DNA of 43,917 nt from Candidatus Dadabacteria bacterium. Its GTDB lineage: Bacteria > Desulfobacterota_D > UBA1144 > Nemesobacterales > CSP1-2. The translations under genes were made by a program, and so were the position numbers. The stretch spans positions 1 through 43,917 of the forward strand of contig JAHFBK010000003.1 in the NCBI GenBank assembly GCA_023250035.1. The letters run 5' to 3'. Below the pieces are notes generated by a model, which was not told where the DNA came from, did not search any database, and saw nothing but the letters and a program-made list of their open reading frames with translations. Numbering within the stretch: position 1 is the stretch's first letter; every line of letters begins with the position of its first letter. This document shows positions 4,261 through 40,680 of the stretch, piece by piece.

Positions 4261-5177
4261 AAGTGATCTTCGACCCAGAAGTACCCCTTAAATTTTCTAC
4301 CTCTGCAACAATTGGAATTTTTGATGGAGTTCACATCGGACACAGAAGAATTATTAGTTCTCTGAGAAAAGATGCTAGAGAAAAGGGTATTAGTTCTTGT
4401 GTGATAACCTTCCATCCCCATCCGCAAAAGGTGCTACGCGGGATTGATATTCCACTTATAGTTCCGCTCAAAGAAAGGTTTAGGCTTCTTGAGAAAGAGG
4501 GTGTGGATGTTACTGTGTGCTACAGTTTCACAAAAGAATTTGCATCTGTTCAGGCCGCGGATTTTGTTAGAGATATGCTAGTTGGAAGACTTGGCATTAG
4601 AACTATATTTGTCGGTCCGGATTTCTTCTTTGGAAGAAATAGGGAGGGGAACATTAATCTTCTTGAAGCCATGGGAAAAACTTATAACTTTGAGATTAGA
4701 AGGGTTGAGCCTGCTTTATTGGACGGTGAGATTATAAGCAGCACTACTATAAGAAAACTGATCGAAGAAGGCATGGTAAGGAAAGCGGCAAGGTTTCTTG
4801 GCTATTCATTTTCAATAGAAGGTACAGTTAAAGAAGGAGAAAGGAGAGGAAGAAAGTTAGGATTTCCAACTGCTAACATTGATACAGACTGGGAAATGCT
4901 CCCAAAAAGAGGAGTATATGTTACATGGGCACATTTAGGTGGCGAAAGGTTTGAAAGTATTACAAATGTAGGCGTTCGTCCTACTTTTGGCGACAATCGG
5001 CTACTGGTGGAAACCCACATAATTGATTTTAAGGATGACGTCTATGGAAAACCTATTAGAATTGAGTTTGTAGATAAATTAAGGGACGAGAGAAGATTTG
5101 AAAGCATTGATGCGCTTGTTGAACAGATATCGAGGGATGTAAAAAGAACTAAAGAGATCTTTTCTGAACTTATTTAA
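4257..5177 (+). CDS. ribF: bifunctional riboflavin kinase / FMN adenylyltransferase
   Basis: 306 aa with GIFDGVHIGH in the N-terminal FAD synthetase part and GRKLGFPTANI in the C-terminal riboflavin kinase part. Confidence 0.9.
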   Translation: MKVIFDPEVPLKFSTSATIGIFDGVHIGHRRIISSLRKDAREKGISSCVITFHPHPQKVLRGIDIPLIVPLKERFRLLEKEGVDVTVCYSFTKEFASVQAADFVRDMLVGRLGIRTIFVGPDFFFGRNREGNINLLEAMGKTYNFEIRRVEPALLDGEIISSTTIRKLIEEGMVRKAARFLGYSFSIEGTVKEGERRGRKLGFPTANIDTDWEMLPKRGVYVTWAHLGGERFESITNVGVRPTFGDNRLLVETHIIDFKDDVYGKPIRIEFVDKLRDERRFESIDALVEQISRDVKRTKEIFSELI

Positions 5178-5223
5178 GCGATTTTTGATTTGAGTGTATC
5201 TATAACAATGAAGGGGAGCCGCT

Positions 5224-6072
5224 TTGATTATAAAAGCAACCACTAAGGTTTATGGGATATTTGGTCATCCAGTAAACCATAGTCTATCTCCCCAAATGCA
5301 TAATGCTGCTTTTCAATCACTACGACTCGACTGTGTTTATCTCGCTTTTGATGTCCACCCAAAGGATTTCGAGATAGCTGCTCGCGCTATAAGGTCTATG
5401 TGTATTTCTGGAGTAAATATTACGATTCCTCACAAAGAGAGCATTATTTTTTTTCTGGATGAAATTTCCCCTGAAGCAAGTCTTACTGGCGCGGTAAACA
5501 CTGTAAAAAACGTGGATGGAAAACTCATAGGATATAACACAGATGTCAGCGGTTTTCTAAGAGCGATAAAGGAGGATTTAGGTTTTCATCCAAAGGGGCT
5601 AAGTGCAGCTCTGATAGGGGCAGGTGGTGCAGCGCGTGCCGTTCTTACATCTCTTTGCATGAACGAGGCATACCAGGTTTACGTGATTAATAGGACCTTG
5701 GATAAGGCAAAGAGATTGGCCTCGGAGTTTAAAAAGGGTTTTAAAGATATCTTTATACAAGCTGTTTCTCTCGATGATAAAGACGAGATAAAAAATATTC
5801 TAGGTAAAACTAATCTTCTTGTGAATGCTACATCAGCAGGAATGAAAGGGGTTGATTCAGTTGAAATACCATTAGAGCACCTTCCAAAAGAAGCGGTGAT
5901 CTATGATCTAGTTTATGATCCCCGTGAGACAAATCTCATCAAAACTGCGAAGGAATTAGGACACAAGGCATCTGGGGGATTGAGCATGCTTCTCTATCAG
6001 GGGGTAGAAAGCTTTGAGATATGGACAGGTAAAGACGCTCCGGCTGGCGTCATGAAAAAGGCACTTGAGTGA
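5224..6072 (+). CDS. aroE: shikimate dehydrogenase
   Basis: 282 aa with SLSPQMHNAAF, NITIPHK, NTD and GAGGAARA motifs. TTG start with GGGGAG upstream. Confidence 0.9.
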   Translation: MIIKATTKVYGIFGHPVNHSLSPQMHNAAFQSLRLDCVYLAFDVHPKDFEIAARAIRSMCISGVNITIPHKESIIFFLDEISPEASLTGAVNTVKNVDGKLIGYNTDVSGFLRAIKEDLGFHPKGLSAALIGAGGAARAVLTSLCMNEAYQVYVINRTLDKAKRLASEFKKGFKDIFIQAVSLDDKDEIKNILGKTNLLVNATSAGMKGVDSVEIPLEHLPKEAVIYDLVYDPRETNLIKTAKELGHKASGGLSMLLYQGVESFEIWTGKDAPAGVMKKALE

Positions 6073-22293: not shown

Positions 22294-22321
22294 GTAGGGG
22301 CACGTTGCAACGTGCCCCTAC
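22294..22321. repeat. REP-like palindrome GTAGGGGCACGT-TGCA-ACGTGCCCCTAC
   Basis: Perfect 12 bp stem with a 4 nt loop, framed by GTAG/CTAC, 15 bp from the left inverted repeat of the RAYT unit. Confidence 0.8.
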
Positions 22322-29395: not shown

Positions 29396-29696
29396 AATAG
29401 TGACAGACACTATTTTAATATTTTCTCCCCTTTTCCAAAGGGGAGCTAGAGGGGATTTTAAAGCTCCTTTTTTTCAAAGAATGGTTGAGGATTCAAATCT
29501 CCCTAAATCCCTCTTTAACAAAGAGGGACTTAACATCCTCCCCTTTTTATAATAGGGTGTATAGACCGGGGAGCTAGAGGGGATTTTAAAGCTCCTTTTT
29601 TTCAAAGAATGGTTGAGGATTCAAATCTCCCTAAATCCCTCTTTAACAAAGAGGGACTTAATATTCTCCCCCGAAAATATTGACAGACACTATTTT
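29396..29696. repeat. composite about 300 bp repeat region: two about 95 bp direct repeats bracketed by a duplicated 16-mer
   Basis: 29450-29544 and 29568-29662 are near-identical (period 118 bp; they differ only near the 3' end, TAACATCCTCCCC vs TAATATTCTCCCC). TGACAGACACTATTTT occurs at 29401-29416 and 29681-29696. Internal hairpins are CTCCCCTTT-TCC-AAAGGGGAG, GGAGCT..AGCTCC followed by T7, and CCCTCTTT-AACA-AAGAGGG. Confidence 0.8.
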
Positions 29697-32272: not shown

Positions 32273-32302
32273 GTAGGGGTTTGTGATTAATCAAACCCCT
32301 AC
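32273..32302. repeat. REP-like palindrome GTAGGGGTTTG-TGATTAAT-CAAACCCCTAC
   Basis: 11 bp perfect stem with an 8 nt loop and a GTAG/CTAC frame. Confidence 0.75.
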
Positions 32303-33131: not shown

Positions 33132-33515
33132 ATGTTCGAATTTCTCAAGGATAGAGGTCTGCGTTTCTATGACGAAGCTAGGGGAGATTTTGAAAAGGGG
33201 TATTATGATTTTTGCCTGTTTCATTCTGAACAGATGGTACAGCTTCTACTTAAGTATCTTATAGCGGTTAAGATAGATGACTTTCCTCGTATCCATTCAG
33301 TTTCACGACTATTTAAAGAAGTAGCAAATCTTTATGGACAGGGGGTAATGGACTTTTACAGGGATAATATCTCTATAATAACAGCGCTTGAAGAGGCATA
33401 CGTTGGTGCGAGATACATTGATATAGAGTTTGATAAAGAAATAGCAGCACAGGTTTTAGATTTTGGGGAAAGGTTTTTGAAGATGGTTGAGGAGATAAGA
33501 TCTCGTGGACATTGA
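33132..33515 (+). CDS. HEPN domain protein
   Basis: 127 aa all-helical protein with the pattern ...A..DF..G.YDFCLFHSEQ..QL.LK...HS...L....EEAYVGARY typical of PF05168-type HEPN. I did not find a clear Rx4-6H motif. Confidence 0.65.
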   Translation: MFEFLKDRGLRFYDEARGDFEKGYYDFCLFHSEQMVQLLLKYLIAVKIDDFPRIHSVSRLFKEVANLYGQGVMDFYRDNISIITALEEAYVGARYIDIEFDKEIAAQVLDFGERFLKMVEEIRSRGH

Positions 33516-33828
33516 AACCCTTACAAATTATGAACGTTATAGAACAAACTGGAAGAAATATGTATCTCAGATAAAATCCGAGGTTATAAAGCTTTGCTCA
33601 GATACAGAGGTATATATTTTTGGTTCCGTCGTTAAAGGAAACACCCATCCAACAAGCGATATAGATGTGCTTTTAGTTTCGGTTGAGTTTAAAAATATAA
33701 AAAAGAGAATTGAGACTCATTCAAAGTTAAAATTATTGTTTCTTGATGCACCCTTTGAGTTTCATCTCATATACCCGGAGAAATTCCCCTTTTACAAGAA
33801 GATGGCAAAGGAGATGGTAAAGATTTAA
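33505..33828 (+). CDS. minimal nucleotidyltransferase (MNT) domain protein
   Basis: 107 aa with the GSVVKGNTHPTSDIDVLLV signature (GSx10-ishDxD). GTG start overlaps the HEPN gene by 11 nt. Confidence 0.7.
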   Translation: MDIETLTNYERYRTNWKKYVSQIKSEVIKLCSDTEVYIFGSVVKGNTHPTSDIDVLLVSVEFKNIKKRIETHSKLKLLFLDAPFEFHLIYPEKFPFYKKMAKEMVKI

Positions 33829-33836
33829 TAGTTCTA

Positions 33837-35048
33837 ATGAAAAGAGTCTACTTAGATTACAACGCAACAACGCCGATTGACCCTCGTGTTCTTGAGGCGA
33901 TGATTCCTTATATGAAGGAGGAGTTTGGAAACCCTTCGAGTATCCACTCCTATGGAATGGCAGGAAAGGCTGCGCTTGATAATTCAAGAGAACAAATAGC
34001 TGAGCTTCTCGGAGCACGCCCTAAAGAGATTGTTTTTACGAGTGGTGGAAGTGAGAGTAATAATTTTGCTACAAAAGGAATTGCTTTTCTCCTAAGAGAG
34101 AAAGGGAACCATCTAATTACCACTCAAGTGGAACATGCTTCCGTTCTTGAAACATGTCGATTTCTTGAAACACAGGGGTTTCGAGTTACTTATCTCGGGG
34201 TAGACAAATACGGTCTTATTGATTTAGAGGAACTTAAAGAAACAATAACAGATGATACAATTCTCGTTTCGGTTATGTTTGCAAATAACGAAACTGGCGT
34301 GATAATGCCTATACAAGAAATTGCAGAGCTCGTGAAAGAAAAGGGGGTTATTTTTCATACCGATGCTATCCAGGCTGTCGGAAGGATTGACATAAATTTG
34401 AAGAATCTCCCAGTTGATCTTCTGTCTCTTTCTGGTCATAAACTCTATGGGCCAAAGGGGATAGGCGCGCTATTTGTAAGAACTGGTGTAGAGACACGCC
34501 ATGGCGTGTCTCTACAGCCTCTTATTCACGGAGGAGGACAGGAAAGAGGAAGGCGTTCAGGTACAGAGAATGTGGCTGGAATTATGGGACTTGGGAAGGC
34601 ATGTGAAATTTTGAAAGAAGATGCAGGATACAAGATGCAGGGTGCAAGAATAAAAGAATTGAGGGATGAGCTTTACGAGGGAATATCGGAAAGAATTAGC
34701 GGATTAAAACTAAACGGTCATCCTGAAAAGAGGCTTTCAAATACATTAAATTTGAGTTTTGAGGGAGTAGAGGGTGAATCGCTCGTAATGAACCTTGACC
34801 TTGAAGGGATAGCCGTATCTACCGGCTCCGCCTGTTCCGAAGGAAATGTTGAACCTTCCCATGTCCTACTTGCAATGGGTCTATCCAAAGAGCAAGCCGT
34901 TTCATCCCTGAGATTCAGTCTTGGAAGGTTCACGCGTAAAGAAGATATAGACAGAGTGCTTGAAGTTCTCCCTGTGATTATAGGGAGGATAAGAGGAATT
35001 AGATTGGTAGAGACGCCATTAATGGCGTCTCTACAGGATAGGAAATAA
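33837..35048 (+). CDS. nifS: cysteine desulfurase (NifS/IscS family) carrying REP-derived segments
   Basis: 403 aa with YLDYNATTP, GNPSSIHS, TSGGSESNN, SLSGHKLYGPKG (PLP lysine), HGGGQERGRRSGTENV and the active-site region STGSACS. Confidence 0.85.
   Translation: MKRVYLDYNATTPIDPRVLEAMIPYMKEEFGNPSSIHSYGMAGKAALDNSREQIAELLGARPKEIVFTSGGSESNNFATKGIAFLLREKGNHLITTQVEHASVLETCRFLETQGFRVTYLGVDKYGLIDLEELKETITDDTILVSVMFANNETGVIMPIQEIAELVKEKGVIFHTDAIQAVGRIDINLKNLPVDLLSLSGHKLYGPKGIGALFVRTGVETRHGVSLQPLIHGGGQERGRRSGTENVAGIMGLGKACEILKEDAGYKMQGARIKELRDELYEGISERISGLKLNGHPEKRLSNTLNLSFEGVEGESLVMNLDLEGIAVSTGSACSEGNVEPSHVLLAMGLSKEQAVSSLRFSLGRFTRKEDIDRVLEVLPVIIGRIRGIRLVETPLMASLQDRK
34488..34515. repeat. REP-like perfect palindrome GTAGAGACACGCCATGGCGTGTCTCTAC inside the nifS ORF
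   Basis: A 28 nt perfect palindrome read in-frame as V-E-T-R-H-G-V-S-L-Q. The intergenic copy at 40337-40363 is identical over 27 nt. Confidence 0.85.
35007..35034. repeat. REP-like perfect palindrome forming the 3' end of nifS
   Basis: A 28 nt perfect palindrome translated as the nifS C-terminal LVETPLMASLQ, followed by DRK-stop. Confidence 0.85.
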
Positions 35049-35626
35049 TGTGTAACGCGGATTTATACAGAGGGAAATACCGGATAAAACCCGCCAGATT
35101 AAAAGAATGGGATTGTTCATCTAGTGGTTATTATTTTGTCACGATTTGTACAAAAAATCAGGAATGCGTATTTGGTAGAATAGTTGATGATAAAATGGTA
35201 TTAACAGGGATCGGAAACATCGTAAAACGATATTGGTTAGAAATTCCAGAACATTTTCAAGATGTTAAATTAGATGAATTTATAATTATTCCAAATCATG
35301 TTCATGGAATTGTAATAATTAATAATCAATATTGTAGAGACGCCATTAATGGCGTCTCTACAGATAGTGGAGGAATTACAAGAGCGCATAATCCTATGTT
35401 ATCGGAAAATTCATTATCAAAAATAATACGTTGGTATAAGGGACGATGCACATTTGAAATCAATAAAATTCAGAGAAAATTCTGTTTTACCTGGCAATCC
35501 AGGTTCTATGACCATATTATCCGAAATGAAAAATCGTTACAAAAAATCAGGGAATACATAAATAACAACACATTAAAATGGGATATAGATGAAAATAACC
35601 CTGCTGTTTTTTGCAAAGAAGACTAG
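35048..35626 (+). CDS. IS200-like HUH/Tyr transposase, RAYT-like
   Basis: 192 aa with YYFVTICTKN, the HUH motif PNHVHGIVII, and WQSRFYDHIIRNE (candidate catalytic Tyr region). Its start overlaps the nifS stop (TAATG). Confidence 0.75.
   Translation: MCNADLYRGKYRIKPARLKEWDCSSSGYYFVTICTKNQECVFGRIVDDKMVLTGIGNIVKRYWLEIPEHFQDVKLDEFIIIPNHVHGIVIINNQYCRDAINGVSTDSGGITRAHNPMLSENSLSKIIRWYKGRCTFEINKIQRKFCFTWQSRFYDHIIRNEKSLQKIREYINNNTLKWDIDENNPAVFCKED
35334..35361. repeat. REP-like perfect palindrome inside the RAYT-like ORF
   Basis: Identical 28-mer to 35007-35034, read as (C)RDAINGVST between the HUH motif and the Tyr region. Confidence 0.85.
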
Positions 35627-35670: not shown

Positions 35671-35697
35671 GTAGAGACGCCATTGATGGCGTCTCTA
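35671..35697. repeat. REP-like palindrome (one central mismatch) overlapping the argC stop codon
   Basis: GTAGAGACGCCATTGATGGCGTCTCTA. The argC stop (rc of 35695-35697) lies within its last 3 nt. Confidence 0.8.
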
Positions 35698-36735
35698 AGG
35701 AAACACTGGAGGCATGTCTAGCCCTAGGGATTCAGGAAATCCCATCATAACGTTCATATTTTGAATAGCCTGACCTGATGCGCCTTTTACTAGGTTGTCA
35801 AGAACTGAGATTATAATTGCAGTTCTATTCTTTGGATTTGCCCTTATCCCAATGTCACAGAAGTTTGAACCCCTGACATCTCCTGTTGATGGGTAGGTTT
35901 TTTCAGGTGTGATTCTTATGAATCTTTTTCCCTTATAGAAATTTTCATAAAGTTCAAGAAGCTCTTTAGTTGTTATTTCTTCTCTCAGTCTTACATAAAT
36001 GGTAGAAAGAATCCCCCTATCCATAGGGATCAAATGTGGTGTGAATGAAACCCTTACGTTAAGTCCTGAATAGTTTGAAAGAACCTCGTCAATCTCAGGC
36101 GTGTGGCGATGATCCCCGACCTTGTAAGCTTTTACACCTTCATTCACCTCACAGAAATGGTAAGCAAGCTCCGGTGACCTTCCAGCGCCTGAGACGCCTG
36201 ACTTGGAGTCAATTATGATTGAGTCCTCTTCTATCATCTTGTTTTTAACCACCGGCGCAAGCCCTAGAATCGCAGATTCTGGATAACATCCGGGGTTTGC
36301 AACGAGTTTGGCTTTTGCAATCTTGGATTCAAAAAGTTCTGTTATTCCGTAAACCGCCTGAGGGATTAATTCAGGGCATGGATGTTCCCCATACCATTCC
36401 TTGTAGACATGGTAGCTCAGCCTGAAATCTGCACCCAAGTCTACAACCCTTTTTCCTCTCTCTACGAGTTCTTCAACTACCTTTGCCGATGCCCCGTGGG
36501 GAAGTGCGGCAAAGACAATCTCGATCTCATCGGGTATTGATTTCAAATCAAGTGGCTGAAGTTCCAGCTTGAAGAAGTTTCTTAAATGAGGAAGAACTTC
36601 TGAAACCGTTTTCCCAGCGTGTTTTTCGGCTGTTGCGTGGGTCACTTCAACTTTGGGATGAGTAATAAGGAATCTGAGAAGATCGCTTCCAGTGTAGCCA
36701 CTCGCTCCAAGCACCGCAACGCTTTTCTTCTCCAT
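35695..36735 (-). CDS. argC: N-acetyl-gamma-glutamyl-phosphate reductase
   Basis: 346 aa with GASGYTG and the NPGCYPES active-site Cys region. Confidence 0.9.
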   Translation of the reverse strand: MEKKSVAVLGASGYTGSDLLRFLITHPKVEVTHATAEKHAGKTVSEVLPHLRNFFKLELQPLDLKSIPDEIEIVFAALPHGASAKVVEELVERGKRVVDLGADFRLSYHVYKEWYGEHPCPELIPQAVYGITELFESKIAKAKLVANPGCYPESAILGLAPVVKNKMIEEDSIIIDSKSGVSGAGRSPELAYHFCEVNEGVKAYKVGDHRHTPEIDEVLSNYSGLNVRVSFTPHLIPMDRGILSTIYVRLREEITTKELLELYENFYKGKRFIRITPEKTYPSTGDVRGSNFCDIGIRANPKNRTAIIISVLDNLVKGASGQAIQNMNVMMGFPESLGLDMPPVFP

Positions 36736-40189: not shown

Positions 40190-40198
40190 ATTTAAATT

Positions 40199-40620
40199 GT
40201 AGGGGCGAGTCTTGTACTCGCCCTATCTGATGGGTACCCTGGACATTCTTGTCCCACATAAGTTATCCTCCCCCTTGCGGGGTCCAGTATCTCGAGCGCA
40301 GTCTGCGAGAGATGGAAATAAAAAATCAAGGTGGGGGTAGAGACACGCCATGGCGTGTCTCTAAAATAACGTGAGGCAGAATTAAGTGTAGCGGAGACCT
40401 TTAGGTCTCCATGGGCATTTGTCATTCCCAAATGTTACCCACTAAAGGCATGTGTGTACAAGCTTTATTGGGAATCCAGATGACTATTTTTGTATGAGCA
40501 ACTTCCAGCCGCGATAAAGATTGTAGGCACGAATTTATTCGTGCAAAGTAAGAAAGGAAAGCACAGACAAGCCTGTGCCTACAAAAAATTGTAGATTGTA
40601 GGCACGAATTTATTCGTGCA
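40199..40620. repeat. cluster of six REP-like hairpins (BIME-like) in the fbaB-fbp convergent gap
   Basis: The six hairpins are: 40199-40226 GTAGGGGCGAGTCTTGTACTCGCCCTAT; 40337-40363 GTAGAGACACGCCATGGCGTGTCTCTA; 40388-40410 GTAGCGGAGACC-TTTA-GGTCTCC; 40523-40545 and 40598-40620 GTAGGCACGAATTTATTCGTGCA (identical); 40561-40582 GCACAG-ACAAGC-CTGTGCCTAC. Confidence 0.8.
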
Positions 40621-40680
40621 ATAAAGTAGGGACCGCTGCGATATAATCGAACTAGGTAAAGATGTAACACTCGTGTGAAT

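Follow-up and report, generated by a model that had tools for sequence, protein, structure and literature searches.

A GTAG-tagged palindrome carried in frame by nifS, probably a tolerated REP insertion, beside a RAYT-like gene in a relative of Candidatus Dadabacteria

Results

The nifS locus and its palindrome

The DNA analysed here, referred to as the window, is a 43.9-kb stretch (43,917 nucleotides) of contig JAHFBK010000003.1 from a Candidatus Dadabacteria bacterium (assembly GCA_023250035.1). It carries a gene encoding a NifS-type cysteine desulfurase, a putative transposase gene directly behind it, and GTAG-tagged palindromes within these genes and in several spacers. The features are as follows, with the strand given where one was assigned.

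22294..22321: perfect 28-nt palindrome of a second GTAG family, GTAGGGGCACGTTGCAACGTGCCCCTAC, intergenic
32273..32302: 30-nt GTAG hairpin, GTAGGGGTTTGTGATTAATCAAACCCCTAC, intergenic, upstream of cysE
33837..35048, plus strand: NifS-type cysteine desulfurase ORF, 403 aa, host of two REP copies
34487..34516, plus strand: intragenic REP variant A, perfect 30-nt palindrome, NifS residues 218-227 (VETRHGVSLQ), frame 0
35007..35034, plus strand: REP variant B, GTAGAGACGCCATTAATGGCGTCTCTAC, in the last codons of nifS, residues 391-400 (VETPLMASLQ); upstream flank of the transposase gene
35048..35626, plus strand: putative REP-associated tyrosine transposase (RAYT / TnpA-REP, subclass 2.4-like), 192 aa, IS200-like Y1 transposase
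35334..35361, plus strand: REP variant B, in frame in the transposase ORF, residues 96-105 (CRDAINGVST), in the HuH-Tyr linker
35671..35698, plus strand: REP variant B with one loop difference and A as last base, just 3' of the transposase ORF
40199..40410: mosaic of other GTAG-tagged hairpins, GTAGGGGCGAG...CTCGCCCTA at 40199-40225 and GTAGCGGAGACC...GGTCTCC at 40388-40410, in the same spacer as the following copy
40337..40364, plus strand: intergenic REP variant A, between convergent DeoC-family and FBPase genes

The product of the nifS ORF matches Pfam Aminotran_5 (2.6e-89), E. coli IscS (1P3W; 2.7e-117) and NCBIfam TIGR03402 FeS_nifS, the last with 547.3 bits and thus above the cut-off of 530.75. 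The sequence retains the PLP lysine (SGHK, K202) and the catalytic cysteine (GSACS, C333). Comparison of the window gene with its orthologs gave dN/dS values of 0.05-0.16 overall and, when the gene was split at the insert, of 0.05-0.10 upstream and 0.08-0.16 downstream. Judged from these comparisons, nifS is a functional gene under strong purifying selection on either side of the insert.

A preliminary description of this DNA had placed a palindrome with unbroken frame at 34488-34515 inside nifS. The sequence search of the window recovered it as GTAGAGACACGCCATGGCGTGTCTCTAC, a 28-nt GTAG...CTAC core which, together with one base at either end, makes a perfect palindrome of 30 nt (34487-34516) in frame 0 of the ORF. 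With its GTAG tag, 13-bp stem and length of 28-30 nt, the element matches the definition of a short (20-40 bp) GTAG-ended stem-loop. The predicted RNA fold has an energy of -26.3 kcal/mol (z = -6.65), and 100 dinucleotide-preserving shuffles contained 0 matches to the palindrome. The second copy that had been noted at 40337 was also recovered, at 40337-40364, and differs from the nifS copy by one mismatch at the last base. The nifS hairpin was flagged as terminator-like; an intragenic terminator was rejected, the tail GCCTCTTATT being weak and the downstream half of the gene being under selection. At gathering thresholds, the sole Rfam match in the window was a tRNA at 10911-10984, and the literal string GTAGAGACGC returned unrelated matches only when searched in the literature.

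Aligned with the window NifS, IscS/NifS proteins of solved structure lack 4-6 residues at the position of the insert. An AlphaFold model of the window NifS (mean pLDDT 81.3) places residues 218-227 right after the strand 210-214 and before the poorly ordered HGGGQERG segment. The REP-encoded residues probably lie in a predicted surface loop, and the insert is presumably neutral for the enzyme.

The repeat family in the window

The pattern TAGAGAC-N(6-20)-GTCTCTA occurs at five sites in the 43.9 kb, against 0 expected by chance. These five GTAGAGAC...GTCTCTA palindromes bear out the earlier proposal that the nifS element belongs to a repeat family rather than to ordinary coding sequence. Variant B, GTAGAGACGCCATTRATGGCGTCTCTAC, accounts for three occurrences. 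These three copies and the RAYT-like gene, all within 1.2 kb, had been overlooked in the preliminary description. All copies are strong predicted hairpins, with RNA z-scores from -4.6 to -7.2. On the minus strand, the CTA at 35695-35697, within the downstream variant B copy, serves argC as its TAG stop codon, and REP-encoded C-terminal tails of nifS, like the one formed by the copy at 35007-35034, occur in many orthologs and in several frames. The hairpin cluster at 40199-40410 resembles a BIME (bacterial interspersed mosaic element, a cluster of REPs).

The repetition that marks GTAG-type REPs is thus seen in five window copies, together with copies at orthologous and other sites in related contigs. 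The association with a cognate RAYT (a REPtron) is seen as well, in that the Y1 transposase ORF (35048-35626) lies between the copies at 35007-35034 and 35671-35698. The nifS copy departs from the extragenic location of such repeats; its intragenic site is compatible with membership because published surveys already include intragenic members. It is not part of a REPIN, an inverted REP pair with short fixed spacing, as the next copy lies 519 bp away.

The transposase gene next to nifS

The ATG of the transposase gene overlaps the TAA stop of nifS (TAATG). The encoded protein passes the cut-off for Pfam Y1_Tnp (31.3 bits, cut-off 23), and it matches NCBIfam REP_Tyr_transpos over the C-terminal part only, with 52.8 bits, below the cut-off of 80. 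Its match to the structure of E. coli TnpA-REP (4ER8) is weak and colinear over the HuH and WQ...Y regions. The HuH and WQ motifs of subclass 2.4 are both found (PNHVHGI and TWQSRFYDH), and the Y motif, YINNNT, agrees with YIxNNP in five of six positions, with T for P; the transposases of relatives, including that of the related locus L126, have YIxxNP. The feature peculiar to this subclass, an in-frame REP between HuH and Tyr in addition to flanking REPs, is also found (35334-35361, CRDAINGVST). On these sequence features, the ORF at 35048-35626 fits a subclass 2.4-type RAYT / TnpA-REP. The transposase gene's own copies are of variant B and the nifS copy is of variant A.

Inserted and uninserted nifS alleles

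The surplus of six residues (18 nt) at the palindrome, previously proposed from the general NifS/IscS pattern, was confirmed among orthologs: in about 70 of the 120 closest homologs the sequence is shorter by exactly six residues at this point. These read R-DGVK------LGP-LIHGGG or a near variant, where the window reads RTGVETRHGVSLQPLIHGGG. About 30 of the 120 have RTGVETRHGVSLQPLIHGGG or a degenerate form of it, and a few show a four-residue surplus, such as R--VETFHGMSLQ and VEAFRGTPLQ. A segment of equal length in repeat-free orthologs, or an alignment without an indel, would have spoken against the proposal; the ortholog alignment showed neither. The NifS family has natural length variation at this site, with 10-, 14- and 16-residue forms.

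At the DNA level, the uninserted allele reads AGA GAT GGA GTA AAA TTC GGT CCT and the window reads AGA ACT GGT GTA GAG ACA CGC CAT GGC GTG TCT CTA CAG CCT. Compared in this way, 27 nt (GAG...CAG) stand in place of about 9 nt (AAA TTC GGT), which makes the inserted allele 18 nt longer. Inserted and uninserted alleles have the Val codon GTA in common, and no target sequence is duplicated. The inserted forms compared at the DNA level share the right junction CTAC-AG-CC, intact or degenerate, and the frame is kept in all inserted orthologs.

A search of metagenome contigs with NifS gave six close loci, too few for a large covariation set. The order cysE, nifS, argC, gap, pgk, deoC, fbp is kept at all loci compared, and in the window, L125, L126 and the P0036 contig nifS and argC are separated by a transposase gene. 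At the related locus L121 nifS is uninserted, yet the same REP is present at the orthologous DeoC-FBPase spacer, so absence of the insert from this nifS does not mean absence of the family.

In a neighbour-joining tree the inserted state is scattered, and the uninserted clade P0011-19 is nested among inserted sequences. Around the site, L121 nifS and the window DNA are 78-81% identical; over most of the remaining gene the value is 90-96%, and it drops again, to about 80%, near columns 240-300. These dips suggest, at the sequence level, that nifS alleles are mosaic.

Pairing of the insert across orthologs

For the analysis of covariation, nine orthologous intragenic copies were used, whose nifS DNA is 70-98% identical to that of the window. 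Standard pairs fill 90.6% of the stem cells, and six of the 13 stem pairs show changes on both sides. None of 500 shuffles equalled the observed covariation score, in a control that ignores the kinship of the nine sequences; when the 3' partner columns were slid by 1-3 positions, 27-52% of the cells were paired. Stem variants include GTAGAGACATTCC..GGAATGTCTCTAC in L122, GTAGGAAC..GTTCCTAC in L127 and GTAGGTGC..GTACCTAC in L209. The insert peptides drift among orthologs (VETRHGVSLQ, VETFHGMSLQ, VGTRHGLFLP, VGARHSVYLP), and because the encoded peptide changes along with the stem, what is constrained is not the protein. For the intergenic variant A copy at the 40337 site, orthologous copies are present in L125 and L121 only. 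Since intergenic variant A is confined to these closest relatives, the intragenic copy is the longer-lived of the two.

Occurrence in other phyla

A scan of one genome per species with GTAGAGACRC-N(4-12)-GYGTCTCTAC gave at least 120 stretches. Among the matches listed, palindromes of this class were found in Bacteroidota, Cyanobacteria, Chloroflexota, Planctomycetota and others; the outer 10 bp were constant, and the inner bases varied and were complementary in most copies. At least eight of the 132 palindromes listed lie inside RAYT-like ORFs, seven of those eight in the HuH-Tyr linker, so that a REP occupies the same transposase position in RAYT-like ORFs of other phyla. The matches listed from other phyla also include in-frame palindromes in genes for AcrB, RecG, MoeA, a molybdopterin oxidoreductase, an AIRS/HypE-like protein and a pullulanase.

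Discussion

Origin of the insert

The palindrome in nifS is best read as a GTAG-tagged copy of a RAYT-mobilised REP family that inserted in frame and was tolerated, its pairing being kept up by processes that re-match the two arms. We give this reading a probability of about 0.85. It draws directly on observed family membership, presence and absence of the insert among orthologs, the unbroken frame, the selection acting on nifS and pairing through two-sided changes. Under this reading, a GTAG-tagged REP copy would have inserted into the coding part of nifS, immediately past the strand that comes after the PLP lysine. By analogy with E. coli TnpA-REP and IS200/IS605, the cognate HuH/Tyr single-strand transposase encoded directly 3' of nifS may mobilise the REP on single-stranded DNA, where we assume that the RAYT flanked by variant B recognises the variant A hairpin. 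About 9 nt would have been replaced by 27 nt and the loop lengthened by six residues, which the enzyme would have tolerated while the gene stayed under strong purifying selection. The reading frame was kept because the net gain is 18 nt. The junctions are unlike those of clean cut-and-paste transposition, because about 9 nt of ancestral sequence were replaced and no target was duplicated.

Given the scattered inserted state in the tree, a single insertion would need later recombination or replacement, for which the sign seen is the local drop in identity in L121. One old insertion, followed by allele exchange and by a 6-nt deletion in one branch, is favoured because the inserted forms share the right junction. 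Repeated insertion at the nifS site is possible. Simple excision was rejected as the origin of the uninserted P0011-19 clade, as removal of 18 nt gives TGVSLQ and not DGVKFG.

Two other origins were weighed. The palindrome could have been made in place, by local inverted duplication of ancestral nifS through a replication template switch, with the identity to the 40337 copy being secondary. The 18 extra bases, TGTAGAGACACGCCATGG, are indeed the exact reverse complement of the palindrome's last 18 bases, and without them the frame stays open as TGVSLQ. Such a duplication needs a pre-existing right arm, GTG TCT CTA CAG, and the uninserted orthologs have AAA TTC GGT or AAG CTC AGC instead; moreover, the same sequence occurs elsewhere in the window and at orthologous intergenic sites, and the GTAGAGAC foot is common to the copies flanking the RAYT gene of the window and to at least 132 palindromes from many phyla. 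With the right arm missing from uninserted alleles, we regard duplication in place as ruled out for practical purposes and leave it a very small residual probability. Smaller still is the probability of an artefact, whether a wrongly joined contig (misassembly or chimera) or a pseudogene whose frame only looks open. In its favour there is the general fact that assembly can go wrong at palindromes, and nothing more specific; against it, the insert is found in the same frame in about 30 orthologs whose assemblies are independent (ENA, JGI, NCBI and Logan), and both halves of nifS are under purifying selection.

What keeps the arms paired

A further explanation concerns the persistence of the hairpin rather than its arrival. 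The nifS hairpin might itself be functional and kept by selection, as an mRNA structure acting in decay, processing or translation, or as a site on the DNA recognised by the RAYT or by some other protein that binds hairpins, with the six residues as a by-product. It could then be an RNA element of the nifS-transposase transcript, or a protected master copy of the REP at a place where imprecise deletion kills an important gene. If true, this would explain how the copy outlived the intergenic ones and how pairing was kept while the peptide drifted. The 90.6% pairing and the six two-sided pairs have persisted despite a synonymous divergence of 0.4 to more than 1.5 between inserted lineages, the encoded peptide changes freely, and the intragenic copy is common to lineages that no longer share intergenic copies. 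Departures of the G-U type on the sense strand also exceed those of the A-C type by 7:2, a difference that is not significant and for which the A-C cases were read by hand.

Against selection on the hairpin stand the many close relatives without the insert and the decaying copies among those with it, which retain 9 Watson-Crick pairs and one G-U pair of 13 in L126 and 8 and 2 of 13 in L210. Quasi-palindrome template switching, a mutational mechanism already known to make the two arms identical again (PMC7202029), should also produce two-sided changes, and so should conversion by other REP subfamilies: in L124 the left arm, GTAGGGGCACG, matches the beginning of the second family of the window (22294), and the GTAGGAAC foot recurs in the L126 spacer. 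Besides, the covariation rests on nine sequences only, with a shuffle control that ignores their relatedness. We therefore consider a selected hairpin unlikely, roughly one chance in eight by our reckoning. The lasting pairing is most simply explained by processes that re-match the arms of the palindrome, with quasi-palindrome template switching and conversion from other REPs as candidates, and any function of the hairpin would be additional to them.

Relation to known repeats

In the passages on superfamilies and intragenic copies of Di Nocera, De Gregorio and Rocco 2013 (BMC Genomics 14:522, PMC3733652), REPs are sorted into GTAG and CGTC superfamilies, and GTAG REPs lying wholly within ORFs for known proteins, with the frame unbroken, are reported from many species. 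Like those repeats, the nifS element has a 5' GTAG tag, and its stem of 12-13 bp is at the long end of the range given there. Further likenesses to the repeats described in those passages are the predominance of copies downstream of genes or at gene ends, with a minority inside ORFs; the alternative complementary stem residues among subfamilies, with frequent G-T pairs; and the associated RAYT genes flanked by REPs. Unlike the cases in those passages, the present one involves nifS as host gene and relatives of Candidatus Dadabacteria / Thermodesulfobacteriota MAGs as host lineage; here, too, inserted and uninserted orthologs define the indel to the base, and its persistence can be traced across lineages.

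The transposase finds its counterpart in subclass 2.4 as characterised by Quentin et al. 2018 (BMC Genomics 19:475, PMC6006769), whose description of that subclass gives NH[IFV]H, WQ and YIxNNP motifs, a length of about 194 aa, a spread over Cyanobacteria, Bacteroidetes and various other phyla, and, uniquely, in-frame REPs in the transposase gene between HuH and Tyr; the same paper cites REP insertions in unrelated genes. Bertels et al. 2017 (PMC5581495) found the equivalent group 4 to be rare in Proteobacteria and present in 17 classes. The window transposase shares with the subclass, as described in that account, NHVH, WQ, a similar length (192 aa), long flanking REPs and the in-frame HuH-Tyr REP. 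Unlike the subclass as described there, it ends its Y motif in T rather than P, is fused into the nifS transcription unit (TAATG) and belongs to a phylum outside those named in that account.

REPINs, which are pairs of REPs moved by RAYTs of groups 2 and 3 (Bertels and Rainey 2011, PMC3116915), are likewise hairpin repeats that are not autonomous, and a RAYT that is present in one copy and inherited vertically is believed to move them. The nifS copy differs in being a singlet, and its RAYT belongs to group 4 / subclass 2.4 and not to group 2 or 3.

The preliminary description had regarded an in-frame insertion of REP/RAYT type as unusual and had named the Rickettsia palindromic elements (RPEs) as the precedent. 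That view is not supported, since intragenic GTAG REPs and REPs within transposase genes appear in the cited parts of PMC3733652 and PMC6006769, respectively. The nifS element shares with RPEs the persistence of a palindromic repeat in frame in genes for functional proteins, apparently in tolerant surface regions. It is unlike them in being a 28-nt GTAG-tagged REP with an adjoining RAYT in a relative of Dadabacteria, and its sequence is neither that of RPE-1 nor that of the CGTC-tagged RPE-4 and RPE-6 of Rickettsia. In the passages concerned, PMC3733652 assigns RPE-4 and RPE-6 to the CGTC superfamily, for which it gives no dedicated transposase as known, and presents RPE-1 as longer palindromic insertions. 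The nifS element thus behaves like an RPE without being one. In-frame intragenic GTAG REPs and REPs in subclass 2.4 genes are known; new, relative to the passages cited, are the host gene, nifS, and the lineage.

Implications

Peptides such as VETRHGVSLQ or RDAINGVST inside conserved proteins are repeat-encoded, which is a warning for annotation. The locus presents an unusually well-resolved REP in a housekeeping enzyme, with both alleles among close relatives, an adjoining transposase gene and orthologous copies over a large synonymous divergence. The ortholog set can be used to ask what keeps palindromes paired, whether selection, templated repair or conversion, and whether repeats trapped in coding sequence are long-lived reservoirs of REP families.

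REP-encoded tails at the 3′ ends of nifS genes

When analyzing the nifS orthologs of related genomes, we found that many of them (among NifS homologs P0002-P0049 and at related loci L129, L131, L132 and L210) carry C-terminal tails encoded by a REP, which is read in two different frames and yields several variants:

VETPLMASLQ
RDAIHGVS
VETRLIASL
DVETHNYASLQ
RRDAMNGVF

Orthologs without the internal insert carry such tails too, indicating that the gene-end REP site either predates the internal site or has been reused more frequently.

In the window, the stop codon of nifS overlaps the start codon of the transposase gene (TAATG, 35046-35050), and the end of nifS and the start of the transposase also share a coordinate in the contig of homolog P0036. 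This overlap suggests that the two genes may be co-transcribed or translationally coupled. On the minus strand, the stop codon of argC (35695-35697) is formed by the final bases of the REP at 35671-35698.

Upstream of nifS, two overlapping ORFs encoding a HEPN-domain protein and an MNT-type nucleotidyltransferase (33132-33828) lie between cysE and nifS and make up a toxin-antitoxin-like pair. Among the related loci compared, the pair was found in the window, L125 and L121, and was missing at the equivalent position in L122, L123, L126, L127 and L128.

Other repeats and features of the window

The spacer between the DeoC and FBPase genes (40190-40680), the content of which turns over fast among related genomes, combines at least three distinct GTAG-tagged hairpins in a mosaic similar in make-up to a bacterial interspersed mosaic element (BIME), a cluster of REPs:

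40199-40225, GTAG-tagged hairpin
40337-40364, GTAG-tagged hairpin
40388-40410, GTAG-tagged hairpin

A 34-nt GTGG-tagged hairpin (GTGGGAATGTCCC...GGGACATTCCCAC, 14493-14526) is located inside a roughly 1.4-kb AT-rich region (13370-14760), which has no ORF of 70 aa or longer and is possibly a foreign island or a degraded one. An inter-ORF spacer contains a tandem duplication (29440-29671; period 128 nt, 1.8 copies, 98% identity), and a tRNA-Ala (CGC) at 10911-10987 is the sole tRNA or Rfam match within the window.

REP palindromes in proteins of other phyla

On three Bacteroidota-type contigs the palindrome is read as VETQNFASLP/Q within large proteins:

L045, 3387-3414
L105, 5886-5913
L020, 6096-6123

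Judged by motifs such as YPNPxxxxL and GxYFI, the parts of these proteins that hold the palindrome look like putative C-terminal secretion-sorting domains. In L087, a contig of another phylum, the palindrome (5388-5415) lies in a RAYT-like open stretch of 402 aa (about 4563-5771) that contains approximately 200 residues of low-complexity repeats with DDGRGLHG and PHET units, and it occupies the HuH-Tyr linker, as in other RAYT-like ORFs. These repeats and the linker palindrome fit the variable insertion domain described for subclass 2.4 (Quentin et al. 2018, PMC6006769).
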